In this document: positions 2,142 through 52,259 of the stretch, piece after piece
Layout of the letters: the number at the start of each line of letters is the position of its first letter
Numbering within the stretch: position 1 is the stretch's first letter
DNA from: Planctomycetota bacterium
Lineage (GTDB): Bacteria; Planctomycetota; UBA11346
Direction: 5' to 3'
Assembly (NCBI GenBank): GCA_025055595.1
Contig: JANWWU010000083.1
Span: forward strand, 200 to 64,199
Length of the DNA: 64,000 nt
Position numbers and translations under genes: made by a program
The notes under the pieces: model-generated
What the model saw: the letters and a program-made list of their open reading frames with translations, nothing else
Database searches by the model: none
Told to the model about the DNA's origin: nothing

Positions 2142-2218
2142 GGGCAGCCTTCGCGAAAAGGAGTTGTAGGTATATTAAGCCAGATGAACGGATTTTCAGC
2201 CAGAGCCAACGTTGTCAA
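2142..2218 (-). promoter_or_regulatory. Putative cydAB promoter/operator region: the only AT-rich stretch nearby
   Basis: On the minus strand, a TAATAT -10-like hexamer lies about 25 nt upstream of a GAAGG RBS and the ATG. A perfect TTGACA sits about 35 nt further upstream, too far for a standard sigma70 spacer, and overlaps a near-palindrome GACAACGTTGGC (core CAACGTTG). This may be an activator-dependent promoter, as is common for cydAB. Confidence 0.3.
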
Positions 2219-3369
2219 TTGTTGGTCGATTGCGCGTTGCGTGCCGCATCTGCCCTCACTTGCGCCGGCGGCCGCCGCCGGCGCAAGTAGGCCTCGAGCA
2301 GGACGGCGAGGCACTCCGCGGCGGCGCGCGGCAGGCCGCGGGCGAGTTCGACCGCCCCGCCGCCGGCGCCGCGCAGCCGCACATGGGCGCGGTCGGAGAG
2401 GCTCAGCGCCCCTTCGACTTCCGCGGCGAGATCCGCGCTGAGCGCGAGCGCGCTCGCCGCCGGCCGCAGCCATCCGGCCTCCACCTCGATGCCGGAGCGC
2501 TGCAGGACGATGCGCGCGCGCCACAGCGCGTTGCGCAGCGCCGCATGCCAGGCTTGGATCAGGAACGGCGCGATCATGACCGCGAGCACGGCATCGAAGG
2601 CGAGCGCGACCAGCCCGACGGCGCCGGTGAGGGCGACGCAGGCGTGCAGCGACCGCGCGTCCTGGCGCGGCGTGCGCCAGGAGGGAAGGTGGAGGACCAG
2701 CGTCTCGCCGGCGTCCTCGAGACGGATGCCGGCGAGCGCCAGCGGCGCCAGCGGATCGCGGCGCAGAGCCGCAGCGAGCGCGCGTTCGGCTGGCAGCTCG
2801 CTGCCGGCGCTGCCAGCCGCCACCGGCAGCAGGAACGACAGCGGCCCGCGGCGAGCGCGCCAGCGCAGGCGCCACTGGGCGCGCGCCGTCGGCAGATCGC
2901 TGGGCAGCGGCAGCTCGAGCCGATAGCCCCACAGCTCGCCCTCGCGGCGCGCCGCGCGCCGATCGCCGCGCAGCGGAATCGCGCACAGGCTGCGCCGGCC
3001 GTGCTGCACCTCGAGGACGGCGGTCGGGATGCCGTCCTCCGGCGCGCTGCCGTCGAACACCAGGACCTCGACGACGGTGCCGCTCTGCCAGCCTCCGCGC
3101 TCGCAGCGCAAGCGAACGCCGGGCTGCGCGCTCGCCGACCAGCGCTGCAGCGCGGCGACCAGCAGGACGCCGCCGGCGACGGCGAGGGCGAGCGCGAACG
3201 CAAGCAGGACGATGGAGAACAGCGCGAACCCGCTCTCGAGGGCGAGGAACGCGAGGCCGACCGCCAGCAGCAGCGAGAACAGCGGACCGAGCAGCTCGGA
3301 GGCGCTCGGCCGCTCGGGCGGCAGCTCTTCGCGCGCTGGCTGCAAGGCCTGCTCTCCGGACGCCGACAT
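2215..3369 (-). CDS. Hypothetical membrane protein: two N-terminal TM helices plus a soluble domain
   Basis: The 384-aa ORF has a hydrophobic N-terminal stretch (LLGPLFSLLLAVGLAFLALESGFALFSIVLLAFALALAVAGGVLLVAAL). The overlapping plus-strand ORF 2212..3504 has R/D/Q/G-rich antisense-like composition, so the minus-strand ORF is preferred. I do not recognise a family; a bacterial PH-like (YdbT-like) architecture is possible. Confidence 0.45.
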   Translation of the reverse strand: MSASGEQALQPAREELPPERPSASELLGPLFSLLLAVGLAFLALESGFALFSIVLLAFALALAVAGGVLLVAALQRWSASAQPGVRLRCERGGWQSGTVVEVLVFDGSAPEDGIPTAVLEVQHGRRSLCAIPLRGDRRAARREGELWGYRLELPLPSDLPTARAQWRLRWRARRGPLSFLLPVAAGSAGSELPAERALAAALRRDPLAPLALAGIRLEDAGETLVLHLPSWRTPRQDARSLHACVALTGAVGLVALAFDAVLAVMIAPFLIQAWHAALRNALWRARIVLQRSGIEVEAGWLRPAASALALSADLAAEVEGALSLSDRAHVRLRGAGGGAVELARGLPRAAAECLAVLLEAYLRRRRPPAQVRADAARNAQSTNN

Positions 3370-3412: not shown

Positions 3413-5404
<1,992 letters not shown>

Positions 5405-5518
5405 GAGCTTCCGAAGTATGGGGTCGCCTGGCTTCGCCCAAGCGATGATCGCTGCGCCTGCGACGCCGTGTCAGCGGCTCGCGGCTGGCAATCGGCGGCC
5501 GCGCTCTCTGCTGTCGCC

Positions 5519-6637
5519 ATGCCGGAACCAGCGCTCTCGTACCTCGCGAGCGCGCGCTTCGAGGCTGCGCGCTCCGTCGCCTGCGTCGCCGACGGCCATC
5601 CCTGCCGGCGCCTGCACGGCCACAGCTTCCTGTGCCGGCTGCGCGCGCGGCCGCCCGCGGCCTGGGTGCCCTATCCCGGCGGCGCCCTGCCGACGCTCGC
5701 CGCCTGTCTGCAGCGCGCCACCGCCGAGCTCGACTACCGCTTCCTCAACGAGCTGCTCGCCTACCCGACCGACGAAGAGCTCGCGCGCTGGCTGTGGCGC
5801 CGCCTGACCCGCCAGGGCGTCGCGGAGCGCAGCGTCCATGGGCTGCTCGGCGTCGGCATCGCCAGCACCGCCGAGCAGGGCGTCGAGCTGCTCGCGCTCG
5901 ATCGCGCCCGGGTCTGGCGCCGCTTCCACTTCGCCGCCGCCCACCGTCTGCCGCGCGTGCCAGCTGGCCATCCCTGCGGCCGCCTGCACGGGCACAGCTT
6001 CGCGGTGACGCTGATCGCCGAGGCCGGCTTCCCCGACCAGGCCCCCCTCGCGCTCGACTACGAGCTCCTCGCCGAGGCCTGGGAGCCGATCGGCCGTCAG
6101 CTGGCGCACCGCTGCCTCAACGAGGTCCCCGGTCTCGACAACCCGACCAGCGAGGTCCTCGCCGCCTGGCTGTGGGAGCGCCTGCGCCCCGCGCTCGGCG
6201 CCCTGCGCGCGCTGCGCGTCGCCGAGACCTGCACCGCCGGCTGCCACTACGACGGCCAGCGCCATGTCATCTGGAAGGAGTTCCGCGCCGAGAGCGCGGT
6301 CCGCCTGCCGGCGGCGCCGAATGGCAGCGAGCTGGCGCGCTGGCATGGGCACAGCTACCGCCTGCGCTGCTGCCTCGCTCCCCCCTTCGACGCGATGCTC
6401 GGCTGGACGATCGATTTCCGCGCCGTCAAGGACGGCCTGCAGGCGGCGATCGCCGAGCTCGATCACCACGCGCTCAACGAGCTGCCCGGCATCGCCGACG
6501 GCGACCCCGCGAGCGTCGCGAGCTGGCTGTGGGATGCCGCCCGCGCGCGCTTCGGCGAGGGGCCGCTCGTCGCTCTGGTCGTCGAAGAAGAGCCCGGCCA
6601 CGGCGCCGTCCTCGGCGACGCGGTCGAGCCGTGGTGA
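5519..6637 (+). CDS. 6-carboxytetrahydropterin / 6-pyruvoyl-tetrahydropterin synthase-like protein (QueD/PTPS T-fold), three tandem repeats
   Basis: The ATG at 5519 lies inside the spurious 3422..6637 ORF. The 372-aa product has three repeats of about 124 aa, each with the QueD-like LDY..LNE....A.WLW.RL block. Repeat 1 has CRRLHGHSF, repeat 2 has AAHRL plus CGRLHGHSF, and repeat 3 has WHGHSY. Only repeat 2 retains all three Zn-ligand His residues plus the catalytic Cys. Confidence 0.78.
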   Translation: MPEPALSYLASARFEAARSVACVADGHPCRRLHGHSFLCRLRARPPAAWVPYPGGALPTLAACLQRATAELDYRFLNELLAYPTDEELARWLWRRLTRQGVAERSVHGLLGVGIASTAEQGVELLALDRARVWRRFHFAAAHRLPRVPAGHPCGRLHGHSFAVTLIAEAGFPDQAPLALDYELLAEAWEPIGRQLAHRCLNEVPGLDNPTSEVLAAWLWERLRPALGALRALRVAETCTAGCHYDGQRHVIWKEFRAESAVRLPAAPNGSELARWHGHSYRLRCCLAPPFDAMLGWTIDFRAVKDGLQAAIAELDHHALNELPGIADGDPASVASWLWDAARARFGEGPLVALVVEEEPGHGAVLGDAVEPW

Positions 6638-6688
6638 AGCCCGGCGGCCGCGCGAACGACGAAAGACCCCGGCCACTGGCCGGGGTCC

Positions 6689-6779
6689 TGGCGGAGACGG
6701 GCGGATTCGAACCGCCGGTACGCTTTTGGCGTACGGCTCATTAGCAATGAGCTGGTTTCAACCACTCACCCACGTCTCC
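6689..6779 (-). tRNA. tRNA-Ser (anticodon GCU)
   Basis: The reverse complement gives GGAGACG TG GGTGAGTGGTTGAAACC-AGCTCA-TTGCTAA-TGAGC-long variable arm GTACGCCAAAAGCGTAC-GGCGGTTCGAATCCGCC-CGTCTCC-G-CCA. It has a 7-bp acceptor stem, a GCT anticodon loop, a long variable arm, a G73 discriminator and an encoded CCA. Confidence 0.9.
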
Positions 6780-13595: not shown

Positions 13596-13955
13596 TCAGG
13601 CGCGCCAAGGGCGTCGCAGGAGGTCGCACCGCCGCTCCAAGCGGCCGCGGGCATCGTAGAGGAACAGATCGAAGCGGAGGCGATAGCGGTGCAGGCCGTG
13701 CTGCCGCACCAAGGCGCGCGCCGCGCGCTGCAGCCGCGCCAGCTTCGCGGCATCGACCGAGCGTCCGCCCGCGTCGTGGTCTTCACGTCGGCGCACCTCG
13801 ACGACCAGCAGCGTCCGCCAGCGGCTGGCGACGATGTCGATCTCGCCGCCACCGCCGACCCAGTTGCGCGCGCAGATCCGCCAGCCCCGCCAGCGCAGGT
13901 GGCGGACCGCGGCCTCTTCGGCGCGCCGCCCGAGGTCTCGCGGGTCAGCGGCCAT
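13596..13955 (-). CDS. yraN: YraN family (UPF0102) endonuclease-like protein
   Basis: An internal ATG at 13955 within the 231-aa ORF gives a 119-aa product: GRRAEEAAVRHLRWRGWRICARNWVGGGGEIDIVASRWRTLLVVEVRRR..., matching the YraN pattern (GxxGE..A..YL...G..IL.RN.R...GEIDLIA....LVFVEVK.R). The upstream R-rich extension is rejected. Confidence 0.8.
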   Translation of the reverse strand: MAADPRDLGRRAEEAAVRHLRWRGWRICARNWVGGGGEIDIVASRWRTLLVVEVRRREDHDAGGRSVDAAKLARLQRAARALVRQHGLHRYRLRFDLFLYDARGRLERRCDLLRRPWRA

Positions 13956-16119
13956 GCGACGGCTGGCTCTCCTCTGCGGCATCGCCGAGCGAGAAGCGCA
14001 GGCCGCCGGTGATGCCGTCGATGCGCAGCCGCCCCTGCGCGATGTCGAGGCCGACGCCGAGCGGCAAGAAGGTGCCCTCGATCCGCTGGATCTCGCCATC
14101 GCGGAAGCGGGCCTCGACGACGATCGCGCCCTCGCCGCTGATCTGCAGATCGGGGGGGAGGACCAGACCGCTGAGGAAGGCCAACGGCGCATGGTCGATG
14201 ACGCCGCGCAGCTCGCCCTCCTGGCGCTCGCCGCGCAGCGTGCCGGAGAACTGGGCCGAGAAGCCGCCCGGCAGCGGCTGCCCCGCGGCATCGGCGGCGC
14301 GCACCAGCAGCTGCGCGATCTCCAGCTCCTGCATCCGGCCCTCGCTCAAGCGCAGGCCGGCCGCCAGCGCGAAGCGCGGGGTGAGCGCGGCCACCGGCAG
14401 CCACTGCCCGGGAAGGCGCAGCTCGCCGCTCATCAGCTGCCCGTCGAGCGCGATGCGGACGAGGTCGCGCTGCACCTCGATCCGGCCTTGCAGCCGGGTC
14501 GCCAACGCGCGCAGCCAGTCGCGCTGGCGTGTGCGCCAGGCGCCGTCGCGCAGCGTCAGCTCATCGATCGCGATGCTCACGGCGTCGCCGACGCTCAGCG
14601 TGCCGGCGGCCGTCAGTCGTCCGGCGAGCTCGGGCAGCGCGGCCGGCCCGCGCACCAGCGCCAGCAGGCGCTCGACGCGCTCCGCCTCGCCGGCGATCTG
14701 CGTCCGCTGGGCCGTCCAGGTCAGCTGCAGGCGCGCCAAGGGCGGCTGCGCCGCGGACTCGCGTCGCGGCTCGGCGCTGAGCAGTTCTCCGCTCGCCTGC
14801 ACCAGGCCCTCGCCGATCACTGCCGCCACCTGGGCATCGAGCGGACCGATCGACCAGCCGTCGGCGAGCACGCGCAGCTGGGACAAGCGGGCGCTGAGGT
14901 CGCGGCGGCCGGCGGCGAGCGTCAGCGCGCCCTGCACCACCTGCCCGCCGGCGATCGTCACCTCCCGCGGCAGCAGCGGCGCCAGCAGGGTCAGCGGCAC
15001 TTCCTCGGCCAGCACGCGCGGCGGCCGCTCCCCGCCGAGGCGCAGCGCCAGCCGCGCCTGATTCGCGCCGCTGACCGCGATCTCGCCCTGCCGTTCGCCG
15101 ACCGGCCAGCGCAGCTCGAGCTTCGGCAGCAAGCGCGCGATGTCGGCCAGCGGCAGCTTGGCGGGCAACGGCAGGGCCGGCCCTGGCTGCCAGCGCGCGG
15201 CGACCAGCTGCACGCGCGAGCCATCGCGTGCCGCCGTCAGCTCGCCCTCCAGCTCGCCCCAGCGCGCGTCGCGCAGCAGCAGCCGCGTCAGCTGCGCGCG
15301 GCGCGCGTCGGCAGCGAGCGCGGCGCGCAGCTCCCCGCCTTCCCAACGCAGGCAGAGCTCGCCGCGCGCGGTGTCGGAGACGACGACGCGCTCGAGGCGC
15401 GTGCCGGAGGCGTCGATCTCCGCCGGCAGCCACTGGTCGAGCGCACGGTCGAGCGGCGCGATGTAGCCGAGGCCGGCGAGCGCGTCGAGCAGCGCGCGCG
15501 GGGCGATGCGGCCCTCGCTGATCTCCACCGTCGTCGTCACCGGCGCCTCGTCGCCGGCGCGCGCCGTCGTGACCAGCAGACGCAGCGGCTGCCCGGCGAT
15601 GCGCGCCTCCGCCGTGCTGCGCGTCCGCGGCCCGAGGGCCTCGACCCGCACGCGGATCCCGCTCATCGTCAGCCCCCCCGGCAAGGCCAGCTCGGCGTCG
15701 TCGATCTCCACCTGCAGCGGCCTGGGCGCCCGGGTCGGCGGATGCCGGTCCTCGGCAGCGATGATCGCTTCCAGGAAGCGCCGGCGCCGGGCATCGAGGC
15801 CGGCGCGCAGGCCCGCGACGCGCACCGCGAGCACGCGCCGATCGAGGGCATCGAAGCGCACCCAGACCCGCCGCGCCGTCGCCAGCGGCTCCGCGCCGGC
15901 TTCGCCGAGCTCGACGGCCTCGGCCTCGGCCTCCGTCGGTCCGAGCAGGCGGATCCTGCCGAGGCGCAGCTCGCCAGGCATGCCGTACGCCGTCCAGGCG
16001 TGGGCGGCCTCGCGCGCGAGTCCGCCGCCCTGCAGATAGGCGCCGACCCCGAGGACGGCGAGCAGCGGCAGGGCGACGATCACCGCGACGATGACGAGCA
16101 GGACGCGACGGCGGCCCAT
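13945..16119 (-). CDS. Large envelope protein with N-terminal signal anchor, possibly AsmA-family
   Basis: The ATG at 16119 begins MGRRRVLLVIVAVIVALPLLAVLGVGAYLQ, followed by about 700 aa of repetitive low-complexity sequence. Its stop overlaps the yraN start by 11 nt. The family assignment is a guess from architecture only. Confidence 0.5.
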   Translation of the reverse strand: MGRRRVLLVIVAVIVALPLLAVLGVGAYLQGGGLAREAAHAWTAYGMPGELRLGRIRLLGPTEAEAEAVELGEAGAEPLATARRVWVRFDALDRRVLAVRVAGLRAGLDARRRRFLEAIIAAEDRHPPTRAPRPLQVEIDDAELALPGGLTMSGIRVRVEALGPRTRSTAEARIAGQPLRLLVTTARAGDEAPVTTTVEISEGRIAPRALLDALAGLGYIAPLDRALDQWLPAEIDASGTRLERVVVSDTARGELCLRWEGGELRAALAADARRAQLTRLLLRDARWGELEGELTAARDGSRVQLVAARWQPGPALPLPAKLPLADIARLLPKLELRWPVGERQGEIAVSGANQARLALRLGGERPPRVLAEEVPLTLLAPLLPREVTIAGGQVVQGALTLAAGRRDLSARLSQLRVLADGWSIGPLDAQVAAVIGEGLVQASGELLSAEPRRESAAQPPLARLQLTWTAQRTQIAGEAERVERLLALVRGPAALPELAGRLTAAGTLSVGDAVSIAIDELTLRDGAWRTRQRDWLRALATRLQGRIEVQRDLVRIALDGQLMSGELRLPGQWLPVAALTPRFALAAGLRLSEGRMQELEIAQLLVRAADAAGQPLPGGFSAQFSGTLRGERQEGELRGVIDHAPLAFLSGLVLPPDLQISGEGAIVVEARFRDGEIQRIEGTFLPLGVGLDIAQGRLRIDGITGGLRFSLGDAAEESQPSHGR

Positions 16120-16210
16120 GACGCCCAGGGTGTGCGGCCCGCGCCCCGCGCAATGCCGCGGACGGCCGACGAGCGGCGCGCACGCCGGGCGAGGCGCAAG
16201 AGCGGCCGCT

Positions 16211-17347
16211 TCACTCGCTGCTGCCGTGCAGGCCGATGCCGGCCAGCCACAGGCGCAGGCTGCGGCGGCCGTGATAGATGACGATCTGCACCTCGCGCAC
16301 CTGATGGAGGTCGGCGACGCGCGCACGGTGCGCCCAGCCGCTGGCCTGGGTCTTGAAGTCCGCCGCCGTCAGATCGAACGACAGCGGCACGAACTCCTGC
16401 GCGGCGCCGCCCGGCGGCACCGGCAGCGCGCGGCTCTCGTGGTAGGTCCACTGCGCCCCGGTCTTCAGCGCGAGCGCGATCCGGATCTCGCGATCGCTGG
16501 CGTTCGCCACCAGCAGGCCGAAGGCGCGCCGCCCCGTCAGCTGCAGGGGGCGCCGCAGGACGAGCGCGGCCTTGTCGAGCGCCGGCTTGTCCGGCTGCGG
16601 CTCGACATCGACCTGCAGCACGCGCCGCGGACCTTCCGGCGTCAGCAGCGTGATCGTCTCGATGCGCGCCGGGGCCGACCACTGCGGGTGATCGGCCACC
16701 CAGGGGAAGCGCTCATAGCCCTCGTCGACCGGCGTCGCGCTCGCCGCCGCCACCGGGCGGCCCTCGCGCAGGGTGGCCTCGGGATCCAGCCCCAGGCCGC
16801 GCAGCTGCTCGGCCCAGGCGGCGCGCGCCGCCTCGAGCTCGGCGAGGCGCGCCAGCAGCTCGGGATCCTCGCCGCCAGCGTTGCGATAGGCGATGTAGAG
16901 CGGCAGGGCGACCTCCGGGCCCTCGAGCTCGTCGACGACGCGGGCATGCAGGCCGCGGACAGCGAGCGGGCAGTCCGGGAACGCGACCGCGCGGTTCAGC
17001 GCCGCGCGCGCCTGCTCGTGGTGGCCGTGGGCGCGGCACCAGTGCGCGAGGTCGATCAGGCCCTGCAGGTCGCCGGGCGCGACCTGCGCCACCCGCGCCG
17101 CCAGCCCATATTCGACGCGGGCGATGCGCGCGCGCGGCAGCCGCAGGCGGCCGCTGCCGGTGTCGACCGTGACCCATTCGGCATCCGACTGTTCGCTGAC
17201 CACCGTGCCGCGGAAGCGCTGGGCGTTGTCGAGGATGATCAGGTCGCGGTCGCTCGCCGCCTCGCCGGCGTGCAGCGCGACCGCTGCGGCCAGCGCAAGC
17301 TGGCCCCAGAGCAACAAGCTGCGAGAGTTCGGAGCGCTGCAACGCAT
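16211..17347 (-). CDS. Hypothetical secreted protein
   Basis: The 378-aa ORF has a signal-peptide-like N-terminus (LLLWGQLALAAAVALHAGEAA). The opposite-strand ORF 16091..17362 looks antisense-like. It is divergent from the act operon. Confidence 0.5.
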   Translation of the reverse strand: MRCSAPNSRSLLLWGQLALAAAVALHAGEAASDRDLIILDNAQRFRGTVVSEQSDAEWVTVDTGSGRLRLPRARIARVEYGLAARVAQVAPGDLQGLIDLAHWCRAHGHHEQARAALNRAVAFPDCPLAVRGLHARVVDELEGPEVALPLYIAYRNAGGEDPELLARLAELEAARAAWAEQLRGLGLDPEATLREGRPVAAASATPVDEGYERFPWVADHPQWSAPARIETITLLTPEGPRRVLQVDVEPQPDKPALDKAALVLRRPLQLTGRRAFGLLVANASDREIRIALALKTGAQWTYHESRALPVPPGGAAQEFVPLSFDLTAADFKTQASGWAHRARVADLHQVREVQIVIYHGRRSLRLWLAGIGLHGSSE

Positions 17348-17464
17348 CGTCGTCAGTGGTGATACGCGCTCGCCGCGGCGGCGTTGCCGAGTCGCGCTTG
17401 GTGGAAAGTCTCTTCTGCCTGCCTTGTCGACATCGCCTTGCTGGTAGGCTTAGGAACGCCTCGC

Positions 17465-18382
17465 ATGGTGTCCGGCCCTCCTTCCCCTTCCGCGGCCTCG
17501 CCATCGCCGCTGTCGTGGCTCGCGCGCTGGTGGCCGTTGATCGTGCTCGCCGGCGTGCTCGCGGTAGGGGCCTGGCAGTGGTGGTGGAACGCCTTCCACG
17601 ACCGAGGCTATGCTCCCGAGCAACCGATCGCCTTCAGCCACCGCCTGCATGCCGGCGAACTCAAGCTCGACTGCCGCTACTGCCACTTCAACGCCGAACG
17701 CGGCAAGCACGCCGGGATCCCGCCGATGTCGGTGTGCATGGGCTGCCACGCGGTGGTCGCCAGCGACCGGCCGCAGATCCAGCGCCTCGCCGAGATCGCG
17801 CAGCAGGGCAGCTACACGGCTGCCGACGGCACCGTGCACGAGGGCGGCGTCGTCCACTGGCGGCGGGTCCACCGCCTGCCGGATCATGTCTACTTCGATC
17901 ACCGCGCCCATGTCGCAGCCGGCGTCGCCTGCCAGACCTGCCATGGACCGGTCGAGGAGATGACGGTGCTGCGGCAGTTCGCCGACCTGACGATGCAGTG
18001 GTGCCTCGACTGCCACCGCGGCACGCGCTATGTCGGCGGCCCCGGAACGGACCCCAACGACCCGACGACCTGGCGCGTCGGCGTCGCCGACTACGAGGCG
18101 CTGCGCGCGCGCGAGCGCCGCGATCCGATCGTCGTCTTCCACGAGCGGCGCCTGCGCGGCAGCGCCGCCGGCGCTCACGGGCACGGCGAGGCGCCGGCGC
18201 CCGACGCGGCCGCCGCCGAGGAGCCGGCGGCGGCCCCCGATCCTCGGCTCGCCGCCTTTCTCGCCGCCCATCCCGCCTTCGCCGCCAAGGTACGCGAGCT
18301 GCCAGCGTGGCGCGCCGCCGCGCTGCCCGACTCCCATCGCCTGATGAACGCCGCCACCGATTGCAGCACCTGCCATCAATGA
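17465..18382 (+). CDS. actA: Alternative Complex III pentaheme cytochrome c subunit ActA
   Basis: An ATG with an AGGAA RBS precedes an N-terminal TM (WWPLIVLAGVLAVGAWQWWW). There are five CxxCH motifs: CRYCH, CMGCH, CQTCH, CLDCH and CSTCH. Confidence 0.9.
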   Translation: MVSGPPSPSAASPSPLSWLARWWPLIVLAGVLAVGAWQWWWNAFHDRGYAPEQPIAFSHRLHAGELKLDCRYCHFNAERGKHAGIPPMSVCMGCHAVVASDRPQIQRLAEIAQQGSYTAADGTVHEGGVVHWRRVHRLPDHVYFDHRAHVAAGVACQTCHGPVEEMTVLRQFADLTMQWCLDCHRGTRYVGGPGTDPNDPTTWRVGVADYEALRARERRDPIVVFHERRLRGSAAGAHGHGEAPAPDAAAAEEPAAAPDPRLAAFLAAHPAFAAKVRELPAWRAAALPDSHRLMNAATDCSTCHQ

Positions 18383-21300
18383 CGAGCGACACGCGCTTCT
18401 GGTCCTGTCTTGACGATCTCGCCGGCCGCCCCGCCGGCAGCGACGAGTTCGCCCCCGATGTCGCCGCGGCGATCGCCGAGCTGCGCGCGGCCCAGGGCCT
18501 GGACCGCGAGGACGCCGTCGATGCACCGACCCTCGACCGCTGGCGCGCCGAGCTGCAGGCCCTGCTGCCCGGCGTCAACCGCCGCAGCTTCCTGCGGCTG
18601 AGCGGGGCGGCGGCGGTGCTGGCGGCGATCAGCGGCTGCGGCGGCGATCCCCATCCCGATACGCTGGTGCCGCTGGCCGCCCAGCCCGAGGGCACCACCC
18701 TCGGCGAGGCCCTGCACTATGCGACGGTCGTCCGCTGCAATGGCGCCCCCTGCCCGGTCGTCGCGCGCTGCTACGACGGCCGCCCGATCAAGCTCGACGG
18801 CAACCCCGACCACCCGCTGATCCGCGGCCGCAGCGATGCCCGGGTGCAGGCCGCGGTCCTCGATCTCTACGACCCCGATCGCGGCGGACTCGACCCGGCG
18901 GCCCCGCGCCAGTACCGCGACGGGCCGCGCCAGCGCAGCGGCGGGCAGTGGCAGCCGACGGGCTGGGGCGAGCTCGATCGCGCGGTCGGCGAGCGGCTGC
19001 GCGAGGCCCGCCGCATCCTGTGGATCAGCGGACCGCTCGACGGCCCGGCGCAGCGCGCCTTCGTCGAGCTGCTGCAGCGCGCGCTCGGCGAGCGGCTGCG
19101 CCACATCGCCTACCACCCCTGGGCCGAGGACAGCGCGGTCGAGGCGCGCGCCCGGGTCCTCGGCGAGCGCAGCGCCCCGCGCTGGCACCTCGAGCGTGCG
19201 GCCGTCCTCGTCACCTTCGCCAGCGACCCGCTGGCCCACGGCGATGTCGCGCTGCAGGCCGCCTACGGCCGGTTCCGCCGCGGGCAGCGCGGCGAGCCGG
19301 GGCAGCTGATCGCCGTCGAGCCGGTGCTGACCCAGACCGGTAGCTGCGCCGATGTCCGCGTCCGCGCCGCGATGGCGGACCTCGCCTGGGTCGCCTGGGC
19401 GGTGGCCGGCGAGATCGCCGCGGCCGAGGGCGCGGCCCTGCCGCCGGCGATCGCGGCGGCGCTGCCCGAGCAGCGCGCGCGCCTCGCCGCCGCCCTGCGT
19501 CCCGTCGCCCAGGACGGCGAGAGCGTCCCGGCAGTCCGCTACATCGCCGAGCGCCTGCTCGCGGCGCGCCGCCGCGGGGCCCTCGCGCTCGCGCTGGCCA
19601 GCGGCCCGACCCACAGCGGGCCCGAGAGCTTAGACCTGCACATCGCCGTGTGCTGGCTCAACCGCCTGCTCGGCGCCGAGGGCCGCGCGGTCAGCGGGGC
19701 CCCGCCGCGCGCCACCCGCGACGGTCTTAGCGCGGCGCTCGCCGAGGACTGGGATCTCGTCCTCGTCAGCCACGGCGCCAACCCGGCCTTCGACCTGCCG
19801 GGGGCCGCAGAGCGGCTGCGCGCCGTGCCCTGCCTGGTCTCGCTCAACCCGACCCGCGATGAGACCGCGGCCCTCGCCCACTGGCAGGCCCCCGGCCTGC
19901 ACGACCTCGAGAGCTGGGGCGACGCCGAGCTCGCGCCGGGGCAGGCCGAGATCCAGCAGCCGGTGATCCAGCCGCTGTGGGACACCCGGGCGGCGGAGGA
20001 GAGCCTGGCGTCCTTCCTCAGCGCCGCCGGGCTGATGCCTCCCGAGCTCGCCAGCGAGCGCGCGGCGGTGCCGGCGCAGCCGCCGCTCAGCGTCGTCAGC
20101 CGCAAGCAGCTGTGGCAGGCCAGCGCGCGCGGCCTCCTGCCCTGGCGCAGCTTCGTCCGACGGGTGTGGAGCGAGCTGCTCGCCGCGCAGGGCCAGGGCG
20201 GGGAGGCGGCGTGGCGCGCGCTGCTGCAGCGCGGCTTCCTCGCCGTCCCGCCGCGCGCCGCGCCGCCGGCCCTACCGCACGCGATCGCCGCCCCGCCGGC
20301 GCCGGCCTCGGCCAGCGCGCTGACGCTCGTCTGCAGCGGCTCGCGCACCGTCGGCGACGGCAGCCAGCTCAACAACCCCTGGCTGCAGGAGCTGCCCGAC
20401 CCCGTCAGCAAGGTGTGCTGGGACGGCTGGGCCGCGCTCTCGCCGGCCGACGCCGCGCGCCTCGGCGTCGCCGACGACGAGGTCATCGAGCTCGCCGTCG
20501 GCGAGGCCCGCGTCCGCCTGCCCGCCCTCGTCCAGGACGGCCAGCACCCCGGCTGCGTCGAGGTCTTCCTCGGCTGGGGGCGCAGCGCCGCCGGGTTGGT
20601 GGCCGACATCACCGCCGCCGATGGCTGGCGCGCCAACGCCTACCTGCTCGCCGGCGGCCAGCGCTGGGGCGCCGCGGTCACGGTGCAGCGGACCGGGCTA
20701 CGCTACGAGCTGGCGCGCACCCAGCACCACCATCGCCTGGCCGGCGAGCGCGTGGCGCGCGACGATGTCTGGGAGCTGCACCAGCGCGATCCCGGGCAGC
20801 AGCGGCGCCAGCCGGCGCACCATGCCTGGGAGCGCGGCACCGACGGCCGGCCGGGCGGACGCCTGTCGATCTGGGGTCGCCACCACACCTACCCCGGCCA
20901 TCGCTGGGGCATGGTCATCGATCTCGACCTCTGCACGGGCTGCGGGGCCTGCATCGTCGCCTGCAGCGCCGAGAACAATGTCCCGGCGGTCGGCCGCGAC
21001 GAGGTGCGCCGCAACCGCGAGCTGCACTGGATCCGCATCGACCGCTACTACAGCGCGCCGGCAGCGGAGGCGGCGGCGCGCCTCGATGTCGCCGTCCTGC
21101 ACCAGCCGATGCTCTGCCAGCAGTGCGACCACGCGCCCTGCGAGGCGGTGTGCCCGGCGAATGCGACGATGAAGAGCGAGGAGGGCATCAACATCCAGGT
21201 CTACAACCGCTGCATCGGCACGCGCTACTGCGCCAACAACTGCCCCTACAAGGTCCGACGCTTCAACTGGTACCAGTACAGCGCGATGCGCGCCGGCCCG

Positions 21301-21762
21301 CAGCGCGCCGGCGAGCCCGCGCAGCGCATCGCGCGCAACCTGCTCGGCGAAGGCTCGGCGATCGCGGCGGCGGAGCGCGCGCACGCCCCGCTGCACTTCG
21401 TCCTCAACCCCGAGGTGACGGTGCGCCACCGCGGGGTGATGGAGAAGTGCAACTTCTGCCTGCAGAGGCAGCGCGCCTGGCGGCGCGAGGAAGTGCGCCG
21501 CCATCAGCGCCTGCCCGACGGCTTCCTGACCACCGCCTGCGCCCAGGCCTGCCCGACGGAGGCGATCGTGTGGGGCGATCTCAACGACCCCGAGGCTCGC
21601 GTCAGCGCGCTCGGCGAGGACCCCCGCGCCTACCGCGCGCTCGATGCCGAGTCGAACACCAGGCCGAAGATCGCCTACCTCGCCAAGCTGCGTCATCGCC
21701 CAGCAAGCGCCGAGGAACTCGCTGCGCTGCGCGCGGCGCTCGGTCCGGAGGCGGCGCGATGA
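18379..21762 (+). CDS. actB: Alternative Complex III subunit ActB (molybdopterin-oxidoreductase-like plus 4Fe-4S ferredoxin-like fusion), Tat-exported
   Basis: The ATG overlaps the actA stop (ATGA). It has a twin-arginine signal RRSFLRLSGAAAVLAAISGC. The C-terminal region has multiple Cys clusters (CTGCGACIVACS, CQQCDHAPCEAVCP, CIGTRYCANNCP, CNFC...ACAQACP). It sits in frame inside the giant 17356..21762 ORF. Confidence 0.92.
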   Translation: MTSDTRFWSCLDDLAGRPAGSDEFAPDVAAAIAELRAAQGLDREDAVDAPTLDRWRAELQALLPGVNRRSFLRLSGAAAVLAAISGCGGDPHPDTLVPLAAQPEGTTLGEALHYATVVRCNGAPCPVVARCYDGRPIKLDGNPDHPLIRGRSDARVQAAVLDLYDPDRGGLDPAAPRQYRDGPRQRSGGQWQPTGWGELDRAVGERLREARRILWISGPLDGPAQRAFVELLQRALGERLRHIAYHPWAEDSAVEARARVLGERSAPRWHLERAAVLVTFASDPLAHGDVALQAAYGRFRRGQRGEPGQLIAVEPVLTQTGSCADVRVRAAMADLAWVAWAVAGEIAAAEGAALPPAIAAALPEQRARLAAALRPVAQDGESVPAVRYIAERLLAARRRGALALALASGPTHSGPESLDLHIAVCWLNRLLGAEGRAVSGAPPRATRDGLSAALAEDWDLVLVSHGANPAFDLPGAAERLRAVPCLVSLNPTRDETAALAHWQAPGLHDLESWGDAELAPGQAEIQQPVIQPLWDTRAAEESLASFLSAAGLMPPELASERAAVPAQPPLSVVSRKQLWQASARGLLPWRSFVRRVWSELLAAQGQGGEAAWRALLQRGFLAVPPRAAPPALPHAIAAPPAPASASALTLVCSGSRTVGDGSQLNNPWLQELPDPVSKVCWDGWAALSPADAARLGVADDEVIELAVGEARVRLPALVQDGQHPGCVEVFLGWGRSAAGLVADITAADGWRANAYLLAGGQRWGAAVTVQRTGLRYELARTQHHHRLAGERVARDDVWELHQRDPGQQRRQPAHHAWERGTDGRPGGRLSIWGRHHTYPGHRWGMVIDLDLCTGCGACIVACSAENNVPAVGRDEVRRNRELHWIRIDRYYSAPAAEAAARLDVAVLHQPMLCQQCDHAPCEAVCPANATMKSEEGINIQVYNRCIGTRYCANNCPYKVRRFNWYQYSAMRAGPQRAGEPAQRIARNLLGEGSAIAAAERAHAPLHFVLNPEVTVRHRGVMEKCNFCLQRQRAWRREEVRRHQRLPDGFLTTACAQACPTEAIVWGDLNDPEARVSALGEDPRAYRALDAESNTRPKIAYLAKLRHRPASAEELAALRAALGPEAAR

Positions 21763-23141
21763 GCGGCGGCGAGCTCGTGCTGCCGGCCAGCGCCGCCGGC
21801 GCGGCACCCGCGCCCGCCGCGCCGGCGCCGCCGACCGAAGCCGCGCGCATCACCGAGGACCTCTGCGCGCCGGCATTCCGCTTCCCCGGCCCGGCGTGGT
21901 GGGCGGCCTTCCTCGCCGCCGCCGGCCTGGCCGGGCTGCTCGTCCTCGCGGTCGCCGTCTACGTCATCGCCGGCTACGGGGTCTTCGGCGTCAACAATGT
22001 CGTCAACTGGGGCAACGACATCGCGACCTACATCTACTGGATCGCGGTCGCGGTCGCCGGCACCATCGTCTCCTCGGTCCTGCTGCTCTTCCGCCAGGGC
22101 TGGCGCACCGGCATCAACCGCGCAACCGAGGCGATGACGATCTTCGCGATCAACATCGCCGGGCTCTTCCCGCTGATCCACACCGGCCGGCCCTGGGTCG
22201 ACTACTGGCTGATCCCGCTGCCCAACGACCTCGCGCTGTGGCCGCAGTTCAAGTCGCCGATCATGTGGGATGTGTTCGCGATCACCGGCTACGCCGTGTG
22301 CTCGATCCTGTTCTTCTACCTCGGCCTGATTCCGGACTTCGCCACCCTGCGCGACCGCGCCCCGCGCGCCTGGCAGCGCCGCCTCTACGGCTTCCTCGCG
22401 ATGGGCTGGAGCGGCAGCAGCGCCGACTGGAACCACTACGAGCGCGCCTACCGCCAGTTCGCTTGGCTGGCGACGCCGCTGGTCATCGCGATGCACTCGA
22501 CGATCGCGACGCTGCTCGCCGTGTCGCACGTCCCGGGCTGGCACGCGACGATCTTCCCGCCGTACTTCGTCGCTGGCGCCGTGTTCGGCGGCCTGGCGAT
22601 GGCCTTCGTCGTCCTCGTCCCGCTGCGCGCCGCCTACCGCCTGCACCGCTATATCACCGACGACCACCTCGAGCGCCTGGCGAAGATCTTCCTCGCCGTC
22701 GGCCTCGCCGTCGCCTATGTCTACGGGATGGAGTTCTTCGCCGCGTGGTGGAGCGAGGCGCCGGCCGAGCGCGAGCAGTTCTGGTGGCGGCTGACGGGCG
22801 AGGGCGCGTGGAGCTTCTGGCTGATGCTGGCCTGCAACCTGCTGCCGATCCAGCTGCTGTGGTGGCGGCGCTGGCGCCGCCATGGAGCGGCGCTCGTCGT
22901 CATCGGCATCTTCGTCAACATCGGCATGTGGTTCGAGCGCTACAACATCCTCGTCCTCTCGCTGCGCCACGGACAGATGCCGAGCGAGTGGACGACCTAC
23001 GCCTTCACCGCCTTCGACTGGCTGCTGCTCGCCGGCTCCTTCGGCCTGTTCTTCGCGCAGATTTTGCTTTTTGCGCGCATCGCGCCGATGGTCTCGGTCG
23101 CGGAAGTGAAGGCCGAGCTGCTCGGGAGGTCGCATGGCTGA
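21759..23141 (+). CDS. actC: Alternative Complex III membrane subunit ActC (NrfD/PsrC-like)
   Basis: The ATG overlaps the actB stop. The 460-aa polytopic membrane protein shows the NrfD-like pattern. Confidence 0.9.
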   Translation: MSGGELVLPASAAGAAPAPAAPAPPTEAARITEDLCAPAFRFPGPAWWAAFLAAAGLAGLLVLAVAVYVIAGYGVFGVNNVVNWGNDIATYIYWIAVAVAGTIVSSVLLLFRQGWRTGINRATEAMTIFAINIAGLFPLIHTGRPWVDYWLIPLPNDLALWPQFKSPIMWDVFAITGYAVCSILFFYLGLIPDFATLRDRAPRAWQRRLYGFLAMGWSGSSADWNHYERAYRQFAWLATPLVIAMHSTIATLLAVSHVPGWHATIFPPYFVAGAVFGGLAMAFVVLVPLRAAYRLHRYITDDHLERLAKIFLAVGLAVAYVYGMEFFAAWWSEAPAEREQFWWRLTGEGAWSFWLMLACNLLPIQLLWWRRWRRHGAALVVIGIFVNIGMWFERYNILVLSLRHGQMPSEWTTYAFTAFDWLLLAGSFGLFFAQILLFARIAPMVSVAEVKAELLGRSHG

Positions 23142-23670
23142 GCCGCTGCCGCCGCGCTGGGTCGCCGGCCTATGGAGCGCGCCGGGGCCCTTCCTGACCG
23201 CCGTCGCCGCCGCGCGCGACGCGCGCTTTCCGCGCCTCGTCGCCTACGCGCCCTGGCCGGTGCACGGCCTGGAGGCCGCCGCCGGCCACCCGCCGAGCTG
23301 GATCGGCCGCGCCGCGCTGCTCGCCGTCGTCGCCGGCGGCCTCGGCTGCAGCGCGTTCTTCTACCACTCCTCGGTCCTCGAGTGGCCGATCAATGTCAGC
23401 GGCAAGCCGTACTTCGCCCCGCAGTTCTGGCTGGTGCCGATTCTCGAGGCCGCCCTGCTGACCGGCGCCGTCGTCACCTTCCTGTCGTGCGGCCACGCCT
23501 GCCGCTTCCTGCCCGGACAGCGCCGCCATCCCGACCCGCGCGTCACCGACGACCAGTGCGCGCTGCTGATCGCCGTCGACGGCGAGCGCTACACCGAGGA
23601 GTCGCTCAGCCGCTGGCTGCAGGACCACGGCGCCGAACGGCTGGTGTACGGCGGAGGGAGCCATGGCTGA
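23134..23670 (+). CDS. actD: Alternative Complex III subunit ActD (DUF3341-like)
   Basis: The ATG with a GGGAGG RBS overlaps the actC stop. The 178-aa protein has one TM. Confidence 0.8.
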   Translation: MAEPLPPRWVAGLWSAPGPFLTAVAAARDARFPRLVAYAPWPVHGLEAAAGHPPSWIGRAALLAVVAGGLGCSAFFYHSSVLEWPINVSGKPYFAPQFWLVPILEAALLTGAVVTFLSCGHACRFLPGQRRHPDPRVTDDQCALLIAVDGERYTEESLSRWLQDHGAERLVYGGGSHG

Positions 23671-24442
23671 GCGCCGCTGGCTCCTGCTCGCCGTCTGCCT
23701 GCTTGCCGCCTGCGGCGAGGAGAAGGACGAGCGCGGGCTGACCGTGCTGCCGGACATGCACTACACGCCCGCGCTCGAGAGCCAGGACGCCGGGGTCGCC
23801 GAGCTGCGGCAGCGCGATCCCCAGGGGCGCGAGGTCGTGCGGGTCGTCCACTATCCGGCGCAGCTCGCGCCGCCGGACGGCGCGGTCGCCCGCGATCGCG
23901 CGCTCGCGCCGCCGGAGGTCGGCGACCTCGCCGCCGCGCGCGCGCTGCGCAACCCGCTGCTGCCGACCGCCGCCGTTCTCCAGCAGGGCCAGCGCGACTA
24001 CCTGAGCTACTGCGCGCCCTGCCACGGCCGCAACGGCAAGGCGGCGACGAGCGCGCTGGCCCCGCACTTCAGCGGCATCCCCGACCTCGCCGCGCCGGGC
24101 CTGATCGTCAAGCCCGAGGGCGAGCTCTACCACATCATCAGCCGCGGCCGCGGGCGGATGCCGGACTTCGCGGCGCAGATCCCGCCGCCGGAGCGCTGGG
24201 CCCTCGTCCACTTCGTGCGCCTGCAGGCGATCGCAGCCAGCAGCGACGAGGAGCTCGCGCGGCTGGAGGCGCAGGCCGCCGGCGACCCGCAGGCCGCGGA
24301 CGCGCAGCGCGCGCTCGCCGAGGCGCGCCGCCTGCGCCGCGCCCTCGGCAGCGCCGGCGAGGGCTGGGAGTTCCGTCCCGAGCCGCCGCCCGAGCCGGAG
24401 TGGCGCCGCCCGCAGTGGCCGCTGCCGGAGGGTCCGCGATGA
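23663..24442 (+). CDS. actE: Alternative Complex III monoheme cytochrome c lipoprotein ActE
   Basis: It has a lipobox-like N-terminus (LLAVCLLAACGEE) and a single CAPCH heme motif. It overlaps the actD stop. Confidence 0.8.
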   Translation: MAERRWLLLAVCLLAACGEEKDERGLTVLPDMHYTPALESQDAGVAELRQRDPQGREVVRVVHYPAQLAPPDGAVARDRALAPPEVGDLAAARALRNPLLPTAAVLQQGQRDYLSYCAPCHGRNGKAATSALAPHFSGIPDLAAPGLIVKPEGELYHIISRGRGRMPDFAAQIPPPERWALVHFVRLQAIAASSDEELARLEAQAAGDPQAADAQRALAEARRLRRALGSAGEGWEFRPEPPPEPEWRRPQWPLPEGPR

Positions 24443-25638
24443 GCGCCGTCGCCCGCATCGAGCGCCTCGATCCGCCGCCGGCGCTGCATCCGACGCTGTG
24501 GCGCTGGCCGGCCTCCGCCGCGGCCGCCCTCGCCGCCGCGGTCTTCTGCGCGCTCTGGCTGGCGGATGCCCCGCGGGCCTGGAGCGGGCTGCTGATCGGT
24601 CTGACCGTCCTGGTCTGGCTCGGCGTCGGCTCGCTGTTCTTCCTCGCCGCCCATGCCCTCGGCGGCGCGCGCTGGACCGTGCCGCTGCAGGGCGTGATGC
24701 ACGGAATCGGCGCCGGCTGGCCACTCGCCCTGCTCGGCTTCGCCGCGATCGCCGCCTTCGGCATCCCGAGCCTCTACGACTGGTCGCTGGCCAACCCCGA
24801 GCGCGGCGCGCTGTTCCGCGATCCGGCCGGCAGCAAGGCCTGGTGGATGCAGGACGGACGCTGGGCGCTCTCGACGCTCGCGCTGCTGGCGCTGCTGTGG
24901 CTGTGCTGGGCGCGCTGGCAGCGCTGTGCCATCATCGATTCCCCGGAGGCGCAGCGGCGGCAGGCGCGCTGGGCCGTCGTCACCCTGCTCGTCCTCGTCC
25001 CGGGCTTCACCTGGCTGTCCTGGGACACGCTGCTGGCGCTCCATGTGCAGTGGGTCAGCGCCGTGTGGGGCGCCCTCTGCCTGACCTCCGCCGTCCATCT
25101 CTTCCTCGGCTGCAGCGCCCTCGCCCTGGCGTGGCTCGGCCAGCACGGGCTGGCCCAGGTGTCGCGCCCGCACCTGCGCCACGACCTCGGCACCTGGATG
25201 ATGGCGTGGAGCGCGGTCGTCGCCTACCTCGCGGCAGCCCAGTACACGATCATCGGCTTCGCCAACATCGACGAGGAGAGCTTCTGGTACCTGCTGCGCC
25301 TGCAGCACGGCTACGGCGCGCTCGCCGCCGCCGAGCTCGTCCTGCGCTGCGCGCTCCCCTTCCTCGTCCTGCTCAGCCCGCGGCTGCGCGCCGCCTCCTG
25401 GGCCCAGGTCGTCGCCGGCCTCGCCATCGTCCTCGGCACCTGGCTGCACCTGCATCTGATCGTCGTCCCCGCCTTCGCCCCCAACCACTTCCGCTCGCCG
25501 CTGGCGCCGGAGTCGCTGATCGCGCTCGGCTGTCTTGCCGGCGGCTTCCTGCTCGCCCTCCGCTGCTGGCGTCGCTGCGGGCTGGTCCCGCTCGGCGACC
25601 CGCGGCTGATCCCGGCGATCAATGGGGATCATCGCTGA
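24439..25638 (+). CDS. actF: Alternative Complex III membrane subunit ActF (NrfD-like)
   Basis: The ATG overlaps the actE stop. The 399-aa polytopic membrane protein is paralogous in style to ActC. Confidence 0.85.
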   Translation: MSAVARIERLDPPPALHPTLWRWPASAAAALAAAVFCALWLADAPRAWSGLLIGLTVLVWLGVGSLFFLAAHALGGARWTVPLQGVMHGIGAGWPLALLGFAAIAAFGIPSLYDWSLANPERGALFRDPAGSKAWWMQDGRWALSTLALLALLWLCWARWQRCAIIDSPEAQRRQARWAVVTLLVLVPGFTWLSWDTLLALHVQWVSAVWGALCLTSAVHLFLGCSALALAWLGQHGLAQVSRPHLRHDLGTWMMAWSAVVAYLAAAQYTIIGFANIDEESFWYLLRLQHGYGALAAAELVLRCALPFLVLLSPRLRAASWAQVVAGLAIVLGTWLHLHLIVVPAFAPNHFRSPLAPESLIALGCLAGGFLLALRCWRRCGLVPLGDPRLIPAINGDHR

Positions 25639-26516: not shown

Positions 26517-26518
26517 CC

Positions 26519-27634: not shown

Positions 27635-27636
27635 CC

Positions 27637-30407: not shown

Positions 30408-30409
30408 GC

Positions 30410-31953: not shown

Positions 31954-32102
31954 ATCCCGATCGCCTGGGCCTGGCGCTCGGCGCCGGGGTCCTCATCTTC
32001 ATCGTCGTGCTGATCATCGCCTTCAGCCGTTGCGGGCTGCCCAAGGACCCCAAGGAGTGGCGGCGCCAGGAACAGCAGCGCTCGTCGGGAGTGTCGCCAT
32101 GA
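31950..32102 (+). CDS. Small single-TM protein (50 aa), possible oxidase subunit IV-like accessory subunit
   Basis: Its ATG overlaps the ctaG stop and its stop overlaps the coxC start. The sequence is MNPDRLGLALGAGVLIFIVVLIIAFSRCGLPKDPKEWRRQEQQRSSGVSP. The function is inferred only from position. Confidence 0.4.
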   Translation: MNPDRLGLALGAGVLIFIVVLIIAFSRCGLPKDPKEWRRQEQQRSSGVSP

Positions 32103-32971: not shown

Positions 32972-32980
32972 GACGCGCGC

Positions 32981-48871: not shown

Positions 48872-48907
48872 TTGCCCGGCGCGGCTGCGGCGCATCATGC
48901 ATCGTCT

Positions 48908-51275: not shown

Positions 51276-52259
51276 TCACAAGCCGAGCTCGGCGGCCTGC
51301 GCGCGCGCCAGCTCGGGCCCATCGGCCGCCAGCGCCCGCGCCTCGGCGCCGCGGCCCAGGCTGAACAAGGCGACGATCAGGTTGCGGCGGAAGCGCGCCC
51401 AGCCGAGGCGGCGGATGGCGCGGCCGGCGAAGTAGCGCGCGAAATCCGTCTCGCGCAGCGCCAGCAGCGCCGCCTCGTCGTCGCGGCCGACGAGCCGCGC
51501 GTCCTCGGCCGGCGGCGCGAAGCGGTTCCAGGGGCAGACCTCCTGGCAGAGATCGCAGCCGAACCACCAGCCGGCGAAGCGCGCGGCGAGCTCGCGCGGG
51601 ATCACGCCGCGGTGCTCGATCGTCAGGTAGCTGATGCAGCGCTCGCTGAGGCAGCGGCGCCCGAGCAGGGCCCGGGTCGGGCAGCGCTGCTCGCAGCGCG
51701 TGCAGGACCCGCAGCGATCGGCGCCCAGGCCGCCGGGCAGCGGCGGCAGCGGCGCCTCGGTCAGCAGGAAGCCGAGCAGGCGGTACGAGCCGTGGCGCGG
51801 GCTGATCAGCAGGGCATTGCGCCCGATCCAGCCGAGGCCGGCCTGTGCGGCCAGCGTCCGCTCATCGAGCGGCGCGCTGTCGACGCAGGCGCGGTGCCGC
51901 CAGGTTCGGCCGCCAAGCGCATCGAGGCGCCGCCCGACGCGCGCGAGCTTGGCGCGCAGCAGGCGGTGGTAGTCGGCGCCGGCGGCGTAGGCGGCGCGGC
52001 GCAGGCCCGCCGCGGGCTGCGCCGGCGCGTAGTGCAAGGCGACGCACAGCAGGGCGCGCGCGCTCGGCAGCAGGGCCGTCGGCCGCAGGCGCAGCGCACG
52101 CTGCGCCAGCAGCCAGCGCATGTCGCCGACGCCATCGGCGGCCAGCAGGTCGTGGCGCTCGGGCGACAGCTGCTCCGGCACCGGCGCGAGGGTCGCGAGG
52201 TGGTACAGACCCTCGGCGCGGCACAGCGCCGACAGCGTCTCGCGATCGATGGCGGTCAC
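51276..52259 (-). CDS. queG: tRNA epoxyqueuosine(34) reductase
   Basis: The 327-aa protein uses a GTG start. It has two 4Fe-4S boxes (CGSCTRCEQRCP and CDLCQEVCPWN) and a QueG-like core. Confidence 0.88.
   Translation of the reverse strand: MTAIDRETLSALCRAEGLYHLATLAPVPEQLSPERHDLLAADGVGDMRWLLAQRALRLRPTALLPSARALLCVALHYAPAQPAAGLRRAAYAAGADYHRLLRAKLARVGRRLDALGGRTWRHRACVDSAPLDERTLAAQAGLGWIGRNALLISPRHGSYRLLGFLLTEAPLPPLPGGLGADRCGSCTRCEQRCPTRALLGRRCLSERCISYLTIEHRGVIPRELAARFAGWWFGCDLCQEVCPWNRFAPPAEDARLVGRDDEAALLALRETDFARYFAGRAIRRLGWARFRRNLIVALFSLGRGAEARALAADGPELARAQAAELGL

Follow-up and report, generated by a model that had tools for sequence, protein, structure and literature searches.

The gene at positions 5519–6637 of a 64,000-nt stretch of Planctomycetota DNA (contig JANWWU010000083.1; the whole stretch is called the window below) encodes a protein of three consecutive QueD/PTPS-like T-fold modules, and this protein is likely to be a QueD in which one chain forms a whole ring, two chains stack head to head, and two composite active sites are each assembled from module 2 of one chain and module 3 of its partner. 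QueD, 6-carboxy-5,6,7,8-tetrahydropterin (CPH4) synthase, is the first dedicated enzyme of preQ0/queuosine synthesis and the textbook example of a single-module T-fold homohexamer. T-fold enzymes are classed as unimodular or bimodular, with QueD among the unimodular ones (reviewed in Hutinet, Swarjo and de Crecy-Lagard, 2016), and the InterPro family is credited with 18 domain architectures in the AGeNNT paper. Full-text literature searches for a fused, tandem, trimodular or pseudo-trimeric PTPS/QueD returned no description, a brief earlier mention being possible; together with the purely uni- and bimodular scheme of the 2016 review, this agrees with an earlier note, made from the sequence of the window alone, which did not recall such a protein. 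The gene and its modules lie as follows.

5519..6637, + strand: trimodular QueD gene (ORF and translation, three PF01242 matches, TIGR03367, identity to deposited protein P0001)
5519..5902, + strand: module 1 (aa 1–128), degenerate T-fold module with no complete catalytic set (PF01242, 39.5 bits)
5903..6262, + strand: module 2 (aa 129–248), putative catalytic module with Zn site, Cys and both Glu
6263..6634, + strand: module 3 (aa 249–372), putative donor of the Asp-His dyad, own Zn/Cys site lost (PF01242, 57.3 bits)

The open reading frame (ORF) opens with ATG and runs through 372 codons to a stop codon without interruption in frame; its GC content at third codon positions (GC3), 0.93 in a window of 73.8% GC, fits a real coding sequence, and no obvious Shine-Dalgarno sequence precedes the ATG. 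Its product is 100% identical to P0001, deposited as 'MAG: Planctomycetes bacterium 6-carboxytetrahydropterin synthase' (MAG, metagenome-assembled genome). The gene is thus already public under a generic QueD name and is not new, and it is the architecture and the split active site that appear undescribed. PF01242 (PTPS) matches the protein in three consecutive places, for 177 bits over the whole 372 aa, and each third scanned singly exceeds the gathering cut-off of 22.4 bits (module 1, 39.5 bits, E = 6.5e-10; module 2, 90.5 bits, E = 9.9e-26; module 3, 57.3 bits, E = 2e-15), which bears out the suggestion of the earlier note that the chain is made of three QueD/PTPS repeats. The QueD equivalog model TIGR03367 (cut-off 89.25) gives the whole protein 146.8 bits as the sum of three stretches. 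A tblastn search of the 64-kb window with E. coli QueD placed the modules at 5558–5806, 5912–6259 and 6269–6592 and found no match beyond these three. Modules 1, 2 and 3 are 34%, 48% and 35% identical to E. coli QueD, respectively, and 32–41% identical to one another. These matches put the protein in PF01242/COG0720, and its motif and gene context assign it to the QueD/PTPS-I type.

The evidence for a divided active site comes from the distribution of conserved residues. The modules of 120 close relatives and of 67 diverse representatives were mapped to E. coli QueD numbering; percentages and counts out of 67 refer to the diverse set. The positions that matter in the window copy are the following.

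5570..5572, + strand: module 1, codon of Arg18, in place of the third Zn-ligand His (sequence)
5603..5623, + strand: module 1, relic C29-RRL-H33-G-H35 of C-x3-HGH type (sequence)
5942..5944, + strand: module 2, codon of His142, equivalent to E. coli QueD His16, third Zn ligand (alignment to E. coli QueD; invariant in a 66-sequence alignment)
5975..5995, + strand: module 2, C153-GRL-H157-G-H159, QueD-type C-x3-HGH with catalytic Cys and two Zn ligands (sequence; invariant)
6146..6154, + strand: module 2, T210-S211-E212, equivalent to E. coli T84-S85-E86 at the N-terminus of helix 2, presumed pterin anchor (conservation)
6224..6226, + strand: module 2, codon of Glu236, equivalent to E. coli QueD Glu110 (invariant in module 2, 120/120 and 67/67)
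6344..6352, + strand: module 3, H276-G-H278, relic of the Zn box (sequence)
6461..6466, + strand: module 3, Asp315-His316, equivalent to E. coli QueD Asp70-His71 (alignment and conservation)

The set His16/Cys27/His31/His33/Glu110 is complete in module 2 of all 120 close relatives and of 66 of the 67 diverse members (singly, His16 99%, Cys27 100%, His31 and His33 100% each, Glu110 100%). Thr-Ser-Glu at 84–86 is found there in 63/67 and Glu86 in 67/67, the same positions being variable in modules 1 and 3, and the 18–29 loop is kept as well. Positions 70/71 of module 2 are free to vary (His, Asp or Asn, followed by Tyr, His, Gly, Leu and others) and read Ala-His in the window. Module 3 shows the complementary pattern: Asp70-His71 is present in 120/120 close and 65/67 diverse members, and the helix-1 region bearing the dyad (Gly50, Trp51, Asp54 and Lys59, at 91–99%) is, taken together with it, kept at 84–99% in module 3 only. 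Its positions 16 and 27 are variable, as are Thr84-Ser85-Glu86 and Glu110; His31 is kept in 49%, His33 in 87% and Gly32 in 97%. The three-His Zn ligand set of QueD is therefore complete in module 2 only, modules 1 and 3 lacking His16, and the QueD combination of an Asp70-His71 dyad with Glu110 arises only if modules cooperate, the dyad coming from module 3 and Glu110 from module 2.

Module 1 has no complete catalytic set in any member mapped. Position 16 is Arg in 105/120 close relatives and 90% of the diverse members; position 27 is mostly Ser or Ala, with Cys in the window copy and in 20/120 close relatives; Asp70-His71 is mostly Asp-Tyr, Thr84-Ser85-Glu86 varies and Glu110 is replaced by Ser. 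The positions that are kept are His31 (90%), Gly32 (97%), His33 (91%) and Phe35 (94%). Module 1 is probably a structural filler of the barrel, and its pseudo-site (5570–5623) has a possible interface or metal-binding role on the dimer axis.

The proposal of the earlier note that only one repeat carries a complete Zn/Cys ligand set holds in 120/120 close and 66/67 diverse members, and its description of repeat 3 holds for the window copy, where H276-G-H278 is kept, Leu272 stands in place of the Cys and Val261 in place of the upstream His. Other details needed correction. Repeat 1 does have an HGH box and has lost the upstream His (AAR, Arg18), but the spacing is C-x3-HGH (CRRLHGH) and not C-x5-HGH. 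Repeat 2, said to have everything, does have AAH142 and CGRLHGH, but the Asp of its Asp-His pair is missing, the conserved dyad being that of module 3. A core including LDY, said to be shared by all three repeats, fails in module 2, which reads LAHRC rather than LDH or LDY.

The invariance of Glu86 in module 2 only means that this residue has to work in cis to the Zn/Cys site; the pterin anchor is thus most likely in cis, module 2 having its own Glu in 67/67 and the Glu of module 1 being unconserved. In rat PTPS the pterin-anchoring residue is reportedly Glu107 (Glu A107), and by analogy an in-cis Glu86 would agree with it. Donation of a Thr-Ser-Glu anchor by module 1 to the module 2 site had been considered, since module 1 has T-D-E in 119–120 of the 120 close relatives, and was dropped when its Glu proved not to be conserved across the 67 diverse members.

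Structure prediction with AlphaFold2, from the 66-sequence alignment, gave a mean pLDDT (predicted local distance difference test) of 93.3 and a pTM (predicted template modelling score) of 0.91, values that place the three modules relative to one another with confidence. The predicted strands of module 1 span residues 6–18, 33–43, 109–117 and 120–126. Strand 4 of module 1 (120–126) passes through a two-residue turn into strand 1 of module 2 (129–142), and strand 4 of module 2 (240–244) is followed after four residues by strand 1 of module 3 (249–261). In the QueD ring it is a beta4'/beta1 contact that joins neighbouring subunits (PMC9894224), and such short predicted joins are what would be expected if fusion replaced that contact. 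Foldseek comparison with the whole PDB gave query-normalised template modelling scores (TM-scores) of 0.24–0.36 for all matches with E <= 0.001 and probability >= 0.9, so that no solved chain aligns well beyond about one-third of the model, and a PDB sequence search returned single-module entries only. The model strongly suggests that the three modules close one 12-stranded barrel within a single chain.

T-fold enzymes consist of two rings stacked head to head, the Zn site and His71 of QueD lie at the ring-ring interface, and the first catalytic triad of E. coli QueD takes its His71 from a protomer of the opposite ring (PMC9894224). A chain that is itself a ring should, given head-to-head stacking, form a homodimer, and since the dyad of E. 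coli QueD works from one ring to the other, the functional unit here is probably two chains and not one. The fused pseudo-trimer with asymmetric sites envisaged in the earlier note thus stands as regards its single Zn/Cys module, but probably not as a lone pseudo-trimer.

In the mechanism proposed here, the head-to-tail fusion of three QueD-like T-fold modules would let one chain build the entire 12-stranded ring, and complementary parts have been lost from the modules since the fusion. Module 2 has retained the Zn ligands His142, His157 and His159, the catalytic Cys153 and Glu212/Glu236; module 3 has retained helix 1 with the Asp315-His316 dyad; and module 1, left without a complete catalytic set, would mainly close the barrel. 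In the parent hexamer of D3 symmetry, the dyad of one opposite-ring subunit completes each Zn/Cys site, and reciprocally. The fused dimer would have a single true two-fold axis left, which requires that one module type pair with itself and the other two pair together, and an intact dyad can be brought to the intact module 2 site only by pairing module 2 with partner module 3. Two chains would accordingly stack head to head with the two-fold axis passing through module 1 and partner module 1, Asp315-His316 would complete the module 2 site of the partner chain, and the ~80 kDa dimer would hold two composite sites instead of the six of a ~83 kDa hexamer. We infer the dimer, the pairing, the completion of the site in trans and catalytic competence from the conservation pattern and from the opposite-ring His71 of QueD. 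Complementary degeneration of the fused copies would give rise to just such a pattern, and no evidence was seen for a specific selective advantage.

The architecture is not confined to the window. Searching 5.8 billion proteins for homologues gave more than 100 of full length (360–381 aa, 46–67% identity) from Thiocystis, Thiorhodococcus, Lamprocystis, Thioflavicoccus, Halochromatium, Competibacteraceae and Magnetococcales, and orthologues of 330–385 aa number in the hundreds. Exhaustive HMMER searching of representatives at 50% identity gave 92 clusters at E <= 1e-30, with 73 representatives having three PTPS domains at identities to the query down to ~30%. When one genome per GTDB species was scanned, at least 497 species-level genomes encoded a relative, in Chromatiaceae, Competibacteraceae, Burkholderiales, methanotrophs, Magnetococcales and Planctomycetota; the two best matches were other Planctomycetota MAGs, and isolates among the matches listed include Thiocapsa marina, Thiocystis violacea, Lamprocystis purpurea, Thiococcus pfennigii, Imhoffiella purpurea, Roseateles aquatilis, Ideonella livida, Rhizobacter sp. 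Root1238, Zeimonas arvi, Methylolobus aquaticus and Methylotetracoccus oryzae. The expectation of the earlier note that orthologues would show the same fusion, and not three separate genes, was thus borne out by the database, HMMER, GTDB-species and locus searches.

Within this family the modules are positional orthologues. The best match of a module in another protein is the module at the same position in 60/67 cases for module 1, 66/67 for module 2 and 67/67 for module 3, which implies that the fusion arose once, before the family radiated, and that the copies diverged afterwards; by these sequence comparisons, the fusion has a single origin. Against single-domain QueD, modules 2 and 3 score far above what they reach against the other module classes, and for module 1 the difference is marginal (median 38.1 bits to single-domain QueD versus 37.4 to module 2).

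PTPS proteins of two modules, ~226–236 aa long, also exist (P0198, P0207, P0212, P0216, P0218, P0225 and P0231). Their N-terminal module keeps His16/His31/His33 and Asp70-His71 and is without Cys27, Glu86 and Glu110, and their C-terminal module has the full His/Cys/His/His/Glu set in 6/7 examined. They could be a bimodular relative of, or an intermediate towards, the trimodular form; as read from their residues, theirs is a parallel and partial division of labour.

Gene context of the orthologues points to the queuosine pathway. Among 80 fetched species-level loci, 72 have queC and/or queE flanking the gene: 50 with queC upstream and queE downstream (5 of these also with queF), 16 with queE only and 6 with queC only. 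The neighbours score above curated NCBIfam cut-offs (QueF, TIGR03139, 157 bits; QueC, TIGR00364, 227 bits; QueE, TIGR04508, 338–350 bits), and gene overlaps of 4–8 nt indicate operons. No other QueD-like segment was found in the fetched flanks of the 80 loci, which extended up to 6 kb per side where the contig allowed. The C-x3-HGH motif is the QueD/PTPS-I signature (PMC5041015, PMC9894224, PMC5445326), and motif and gene context together make the trimodular family most likely the QueD of its host organisms, from which CPH4 synthase activity is inferred for the protein. One of the loci, L041 (4868–7738), comes from a MAG that carries the label Synechococcaceae cyanobacterium SM1_2_3; with contig L008, whose closest labelled matches are Competibacteraceae, it shares 96–98% identity in queF and queC and 87% in queE, and the L041 contig is probably mis-binned rather than cyanobacterial.

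Several observations weigh against a head-to-head dimeric QueD with composite sites and a module 1 that merely fills the barrel. The best single module reaches 74.6 bits in TIGR03367, leaving every module below the 89.25 cut-off; the window copy lies outside any que operon, between ftsH and a tRNA-Ser gene, with only queG in the window and 45 kb away; and Arg16 and His-Gly-His of module 1 are kept at 90–97%, which a purely structural role leaves unexplained. The last of these could be accommodated if modules 1 and 3 hold pseudo-sites that bind metal, pterin or nucleotide and play a regulatory or structural part beside the catalytic site of module 2, for example with two His and a residue of the partner chain holding a metal in the manner of His68'' in A. 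baumannii QueD2, whose catalytic Zn is held by the two HGH His and an opposite-ring His. The constraint on module 1 (His-Gly-His 90–97%, Arg16 90%, Phe35 94%) and on module 3 (Gly32 97%, second His 87%) speaks for such binding; the loss of Glu86 and Glu110 from module 1 and the free variation of positions 16, 27 and 86 in module 3 speak against it, and His-Gly-His may be kept merely for the tight turn at the start of strand 2. Pseudo-site binding is compatible with the composite-site dimer, and the Arg16/His-Gly-His constraint in module 1 hints at it; on balance it seems unlikely. Less probable again, and quite unlikely, is a single-ring monomer whose one site is built inside the chain, the Asp-His of module 3 acting in cis or being kept for some other reason. 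AlphaFold2 does fold the single chain confidently without a partner, and within-chain sites exist in the superfamily, bimodular QueF being reported to catalyse at the intrasubunit interface of its two modules. T-fold rings stack head to head, however, with the QueD Zn site and His71 at the ring-ring interface, and the sole invariant Asp-His and the sole intact Zn/Cys site reside in different modules, which canonical geometry joins across rings.

That the protein is a PTPS-family enzyme with another product (PTPS-II-like, PTPS-III-like or of unknown activity) rather than a CPH4 synthase is very unlikely. COG0720 is known for catalytic promiscuity and misannotation, and the copy in the window does not adjoin other que genes, but queC and/or queE flank nine-tenths of the orthologous loci (72/80), and PTPS-II and PTPS-III identities were rejected on the motif, which is C-x3-HGH and neither C-x5-HGH (PTPS-II) nor E-x2-HGH (PTPS-III). 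The chance that the three-module ORF stems from misassembly, from a frameshift or from reading through three neighbouring queD paralogues is negligible: the reading frame is unbroken, the modules are linked by beta-turns of 2–4 residues and not by intergenic spacers, and hundreds of independent assemblies, isolate genomes included, have the same fusion at the same length, by which an artefact is excluded.

The composite-site dimer is best seen against the enzymes that it resembles. E. coli QueD (PDB 4NTM/4NTK/3QN0) belongs to the same Pfam family, is 48% identical to module 2 and superposes on it at 1.0–1.3 Å; the two have in common the C-x3-HGH box, the third His, Glu110, a 12-stranded ring (here predicted) and, in the orthologues of the trimodular gene, a queC/queE neighbourhood. 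In the E. coli enzyme six subunits of 121 aa and one module each form a homohexamer whose six sites are identical, a description that fails here, where one 372-aa chain would constitute the whole predicted ring, with the Zn/Cys site in one module and the dyad in another. GTP cyclohydrolase IB (FolE2), urate oxidase and type II QueF have two modules per chain and at least two chains per ring, unlike the present protein, whose three modules should close the ring alone. A. baumannii QueD2, a low-zinc QueD paralogue (PDB 7V0F), is likewise a QueD variant with a changed assembly and metal site; it shows directly that the counterpart of E. coli His71, its His68'', belongs functionally to the site of the opposite ring, where it ligates Zn across the rings (PMC9894224). 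Mammalian PTPS (PTPS-II; PDB 1GTQ, 3I2B) has the same fold and the same logic of a hexameric dimer of trimers, and differs in its C-x5-HGH motif, its product in the tetrahydrobiopterin (BH4) pathway and its single-module subunits; Foldseek aligned it to one module only, at a target-normalised TM-score of 0.78–0.79. Rat PTPS, in the work of Buergisser et al. from 1995, is said to form a triad between subunits from Cys A42, Asp B88 and His B89 across the trimer-trimer interface, a precedent for the dyad acting in trans that is proposed for the trimodular protein.

A wider reading seems slightly favoured: that the family is a third, trimodular class of T-fold enzymes, widespread in cultured bacteria, in which the ring is one chain, six sites have become two composite sites, a pseudo-enzyme module sits on the two-fold axis, and natural complementary degeneration followed the fusion of a homo-oligomer in the manner of a constructive-neutral ratchet. 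A trimodular form in at least ~500 species-level genomes would add a new class to a superfamily that is taught as uni- and bimodular, and many of the host species are cultured (purple sulfur bacteria, Burkholderiales, methanotrophs). If this is true, the protein would be a natural 'single-chain trimer' whose modules can be mutated separately, making the cis and cross-ring roles of T-fold site residues testable, and a well-sampled case in which the fusion of a symmetric oligomer allows its copies to lose functions in complementary fashion. For specialists in T-fold enzymes and queuosine it would be a surprise and a convenient experimental system, with pathway and chemistry unchanged; for annotation it is a warning, the automatic name '6-carboxytetrahydropterin synthase' concealing the architecture.

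The surroundings of the gene in the window agree with those given in the earlier note.

3413..5404, − strand: ftsH, divergent upstream neighbour (Peptidase_M41, AAA and FtsH_ext)
6689..6779, − strand: tRNA-Ser(GCT), convergent downstream neighbour (ARAGORN; Rfam RF00005, 57.9 bits)
51276..52259, − strand: queG, epoxyqueuosine reductase (PF08331 QueG_DUF1730 and Fer4_16)

With queG in the window, at least this late step of queuosine synthesis is present in the organism. The 114 nt that separate ftsH from the divergent trimodular gene (5405–5518) have no Rfam match and no preQ1 riboswitch, and in an Rfam scan of the window the tRNA was the only match. A promoter scan gave one weak promoter-like site, on the minus strand, and a terminator scan called none. 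A GC-rich hairpin at 6660–6690, CCCCGGCC-ACTG-GCCGGGG, lies in the 51 nt that separate the stop codon from the tRNA-Ser 3' end; it is without a T-run and was not called by the terminator scan.

Elsewhere, the window contains a block of respiratory genes (17356–34252), a further respiratory gene near its start and, near its end, a peptidase gene.

813-2141, − strand: cytochrome bd oxidase subunit I
17356-21762: molybdopterin/4Fe-4S protein of alternative-complex-III type
23134-23670: ActD
23663-24442: cytochrome c
27151-29325: COX1
30410-31291: UbiA-family prenyltransferase
32030-32971: COX3
61962-63974, − strand: peptidase U32 family protein with DUF3656

Six ORFs have GC3 of coding type (0.90–0.95) and no Pfam match at E <= 1e-5: 2215–3369 (−), 13945–16326 (−), 16211–17347 (−), 24400–25638 (+), 38090–40810 (−) and 48872–49711 (+). 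They are unannotated proteins of a Planctomycetota-like genome. Some members of the U32 family, to which the product of 61962–63974 belongs, have roles in the hydroxylation of tRNA or rRNA or in the anaerobic synthesis of ubiquinone.

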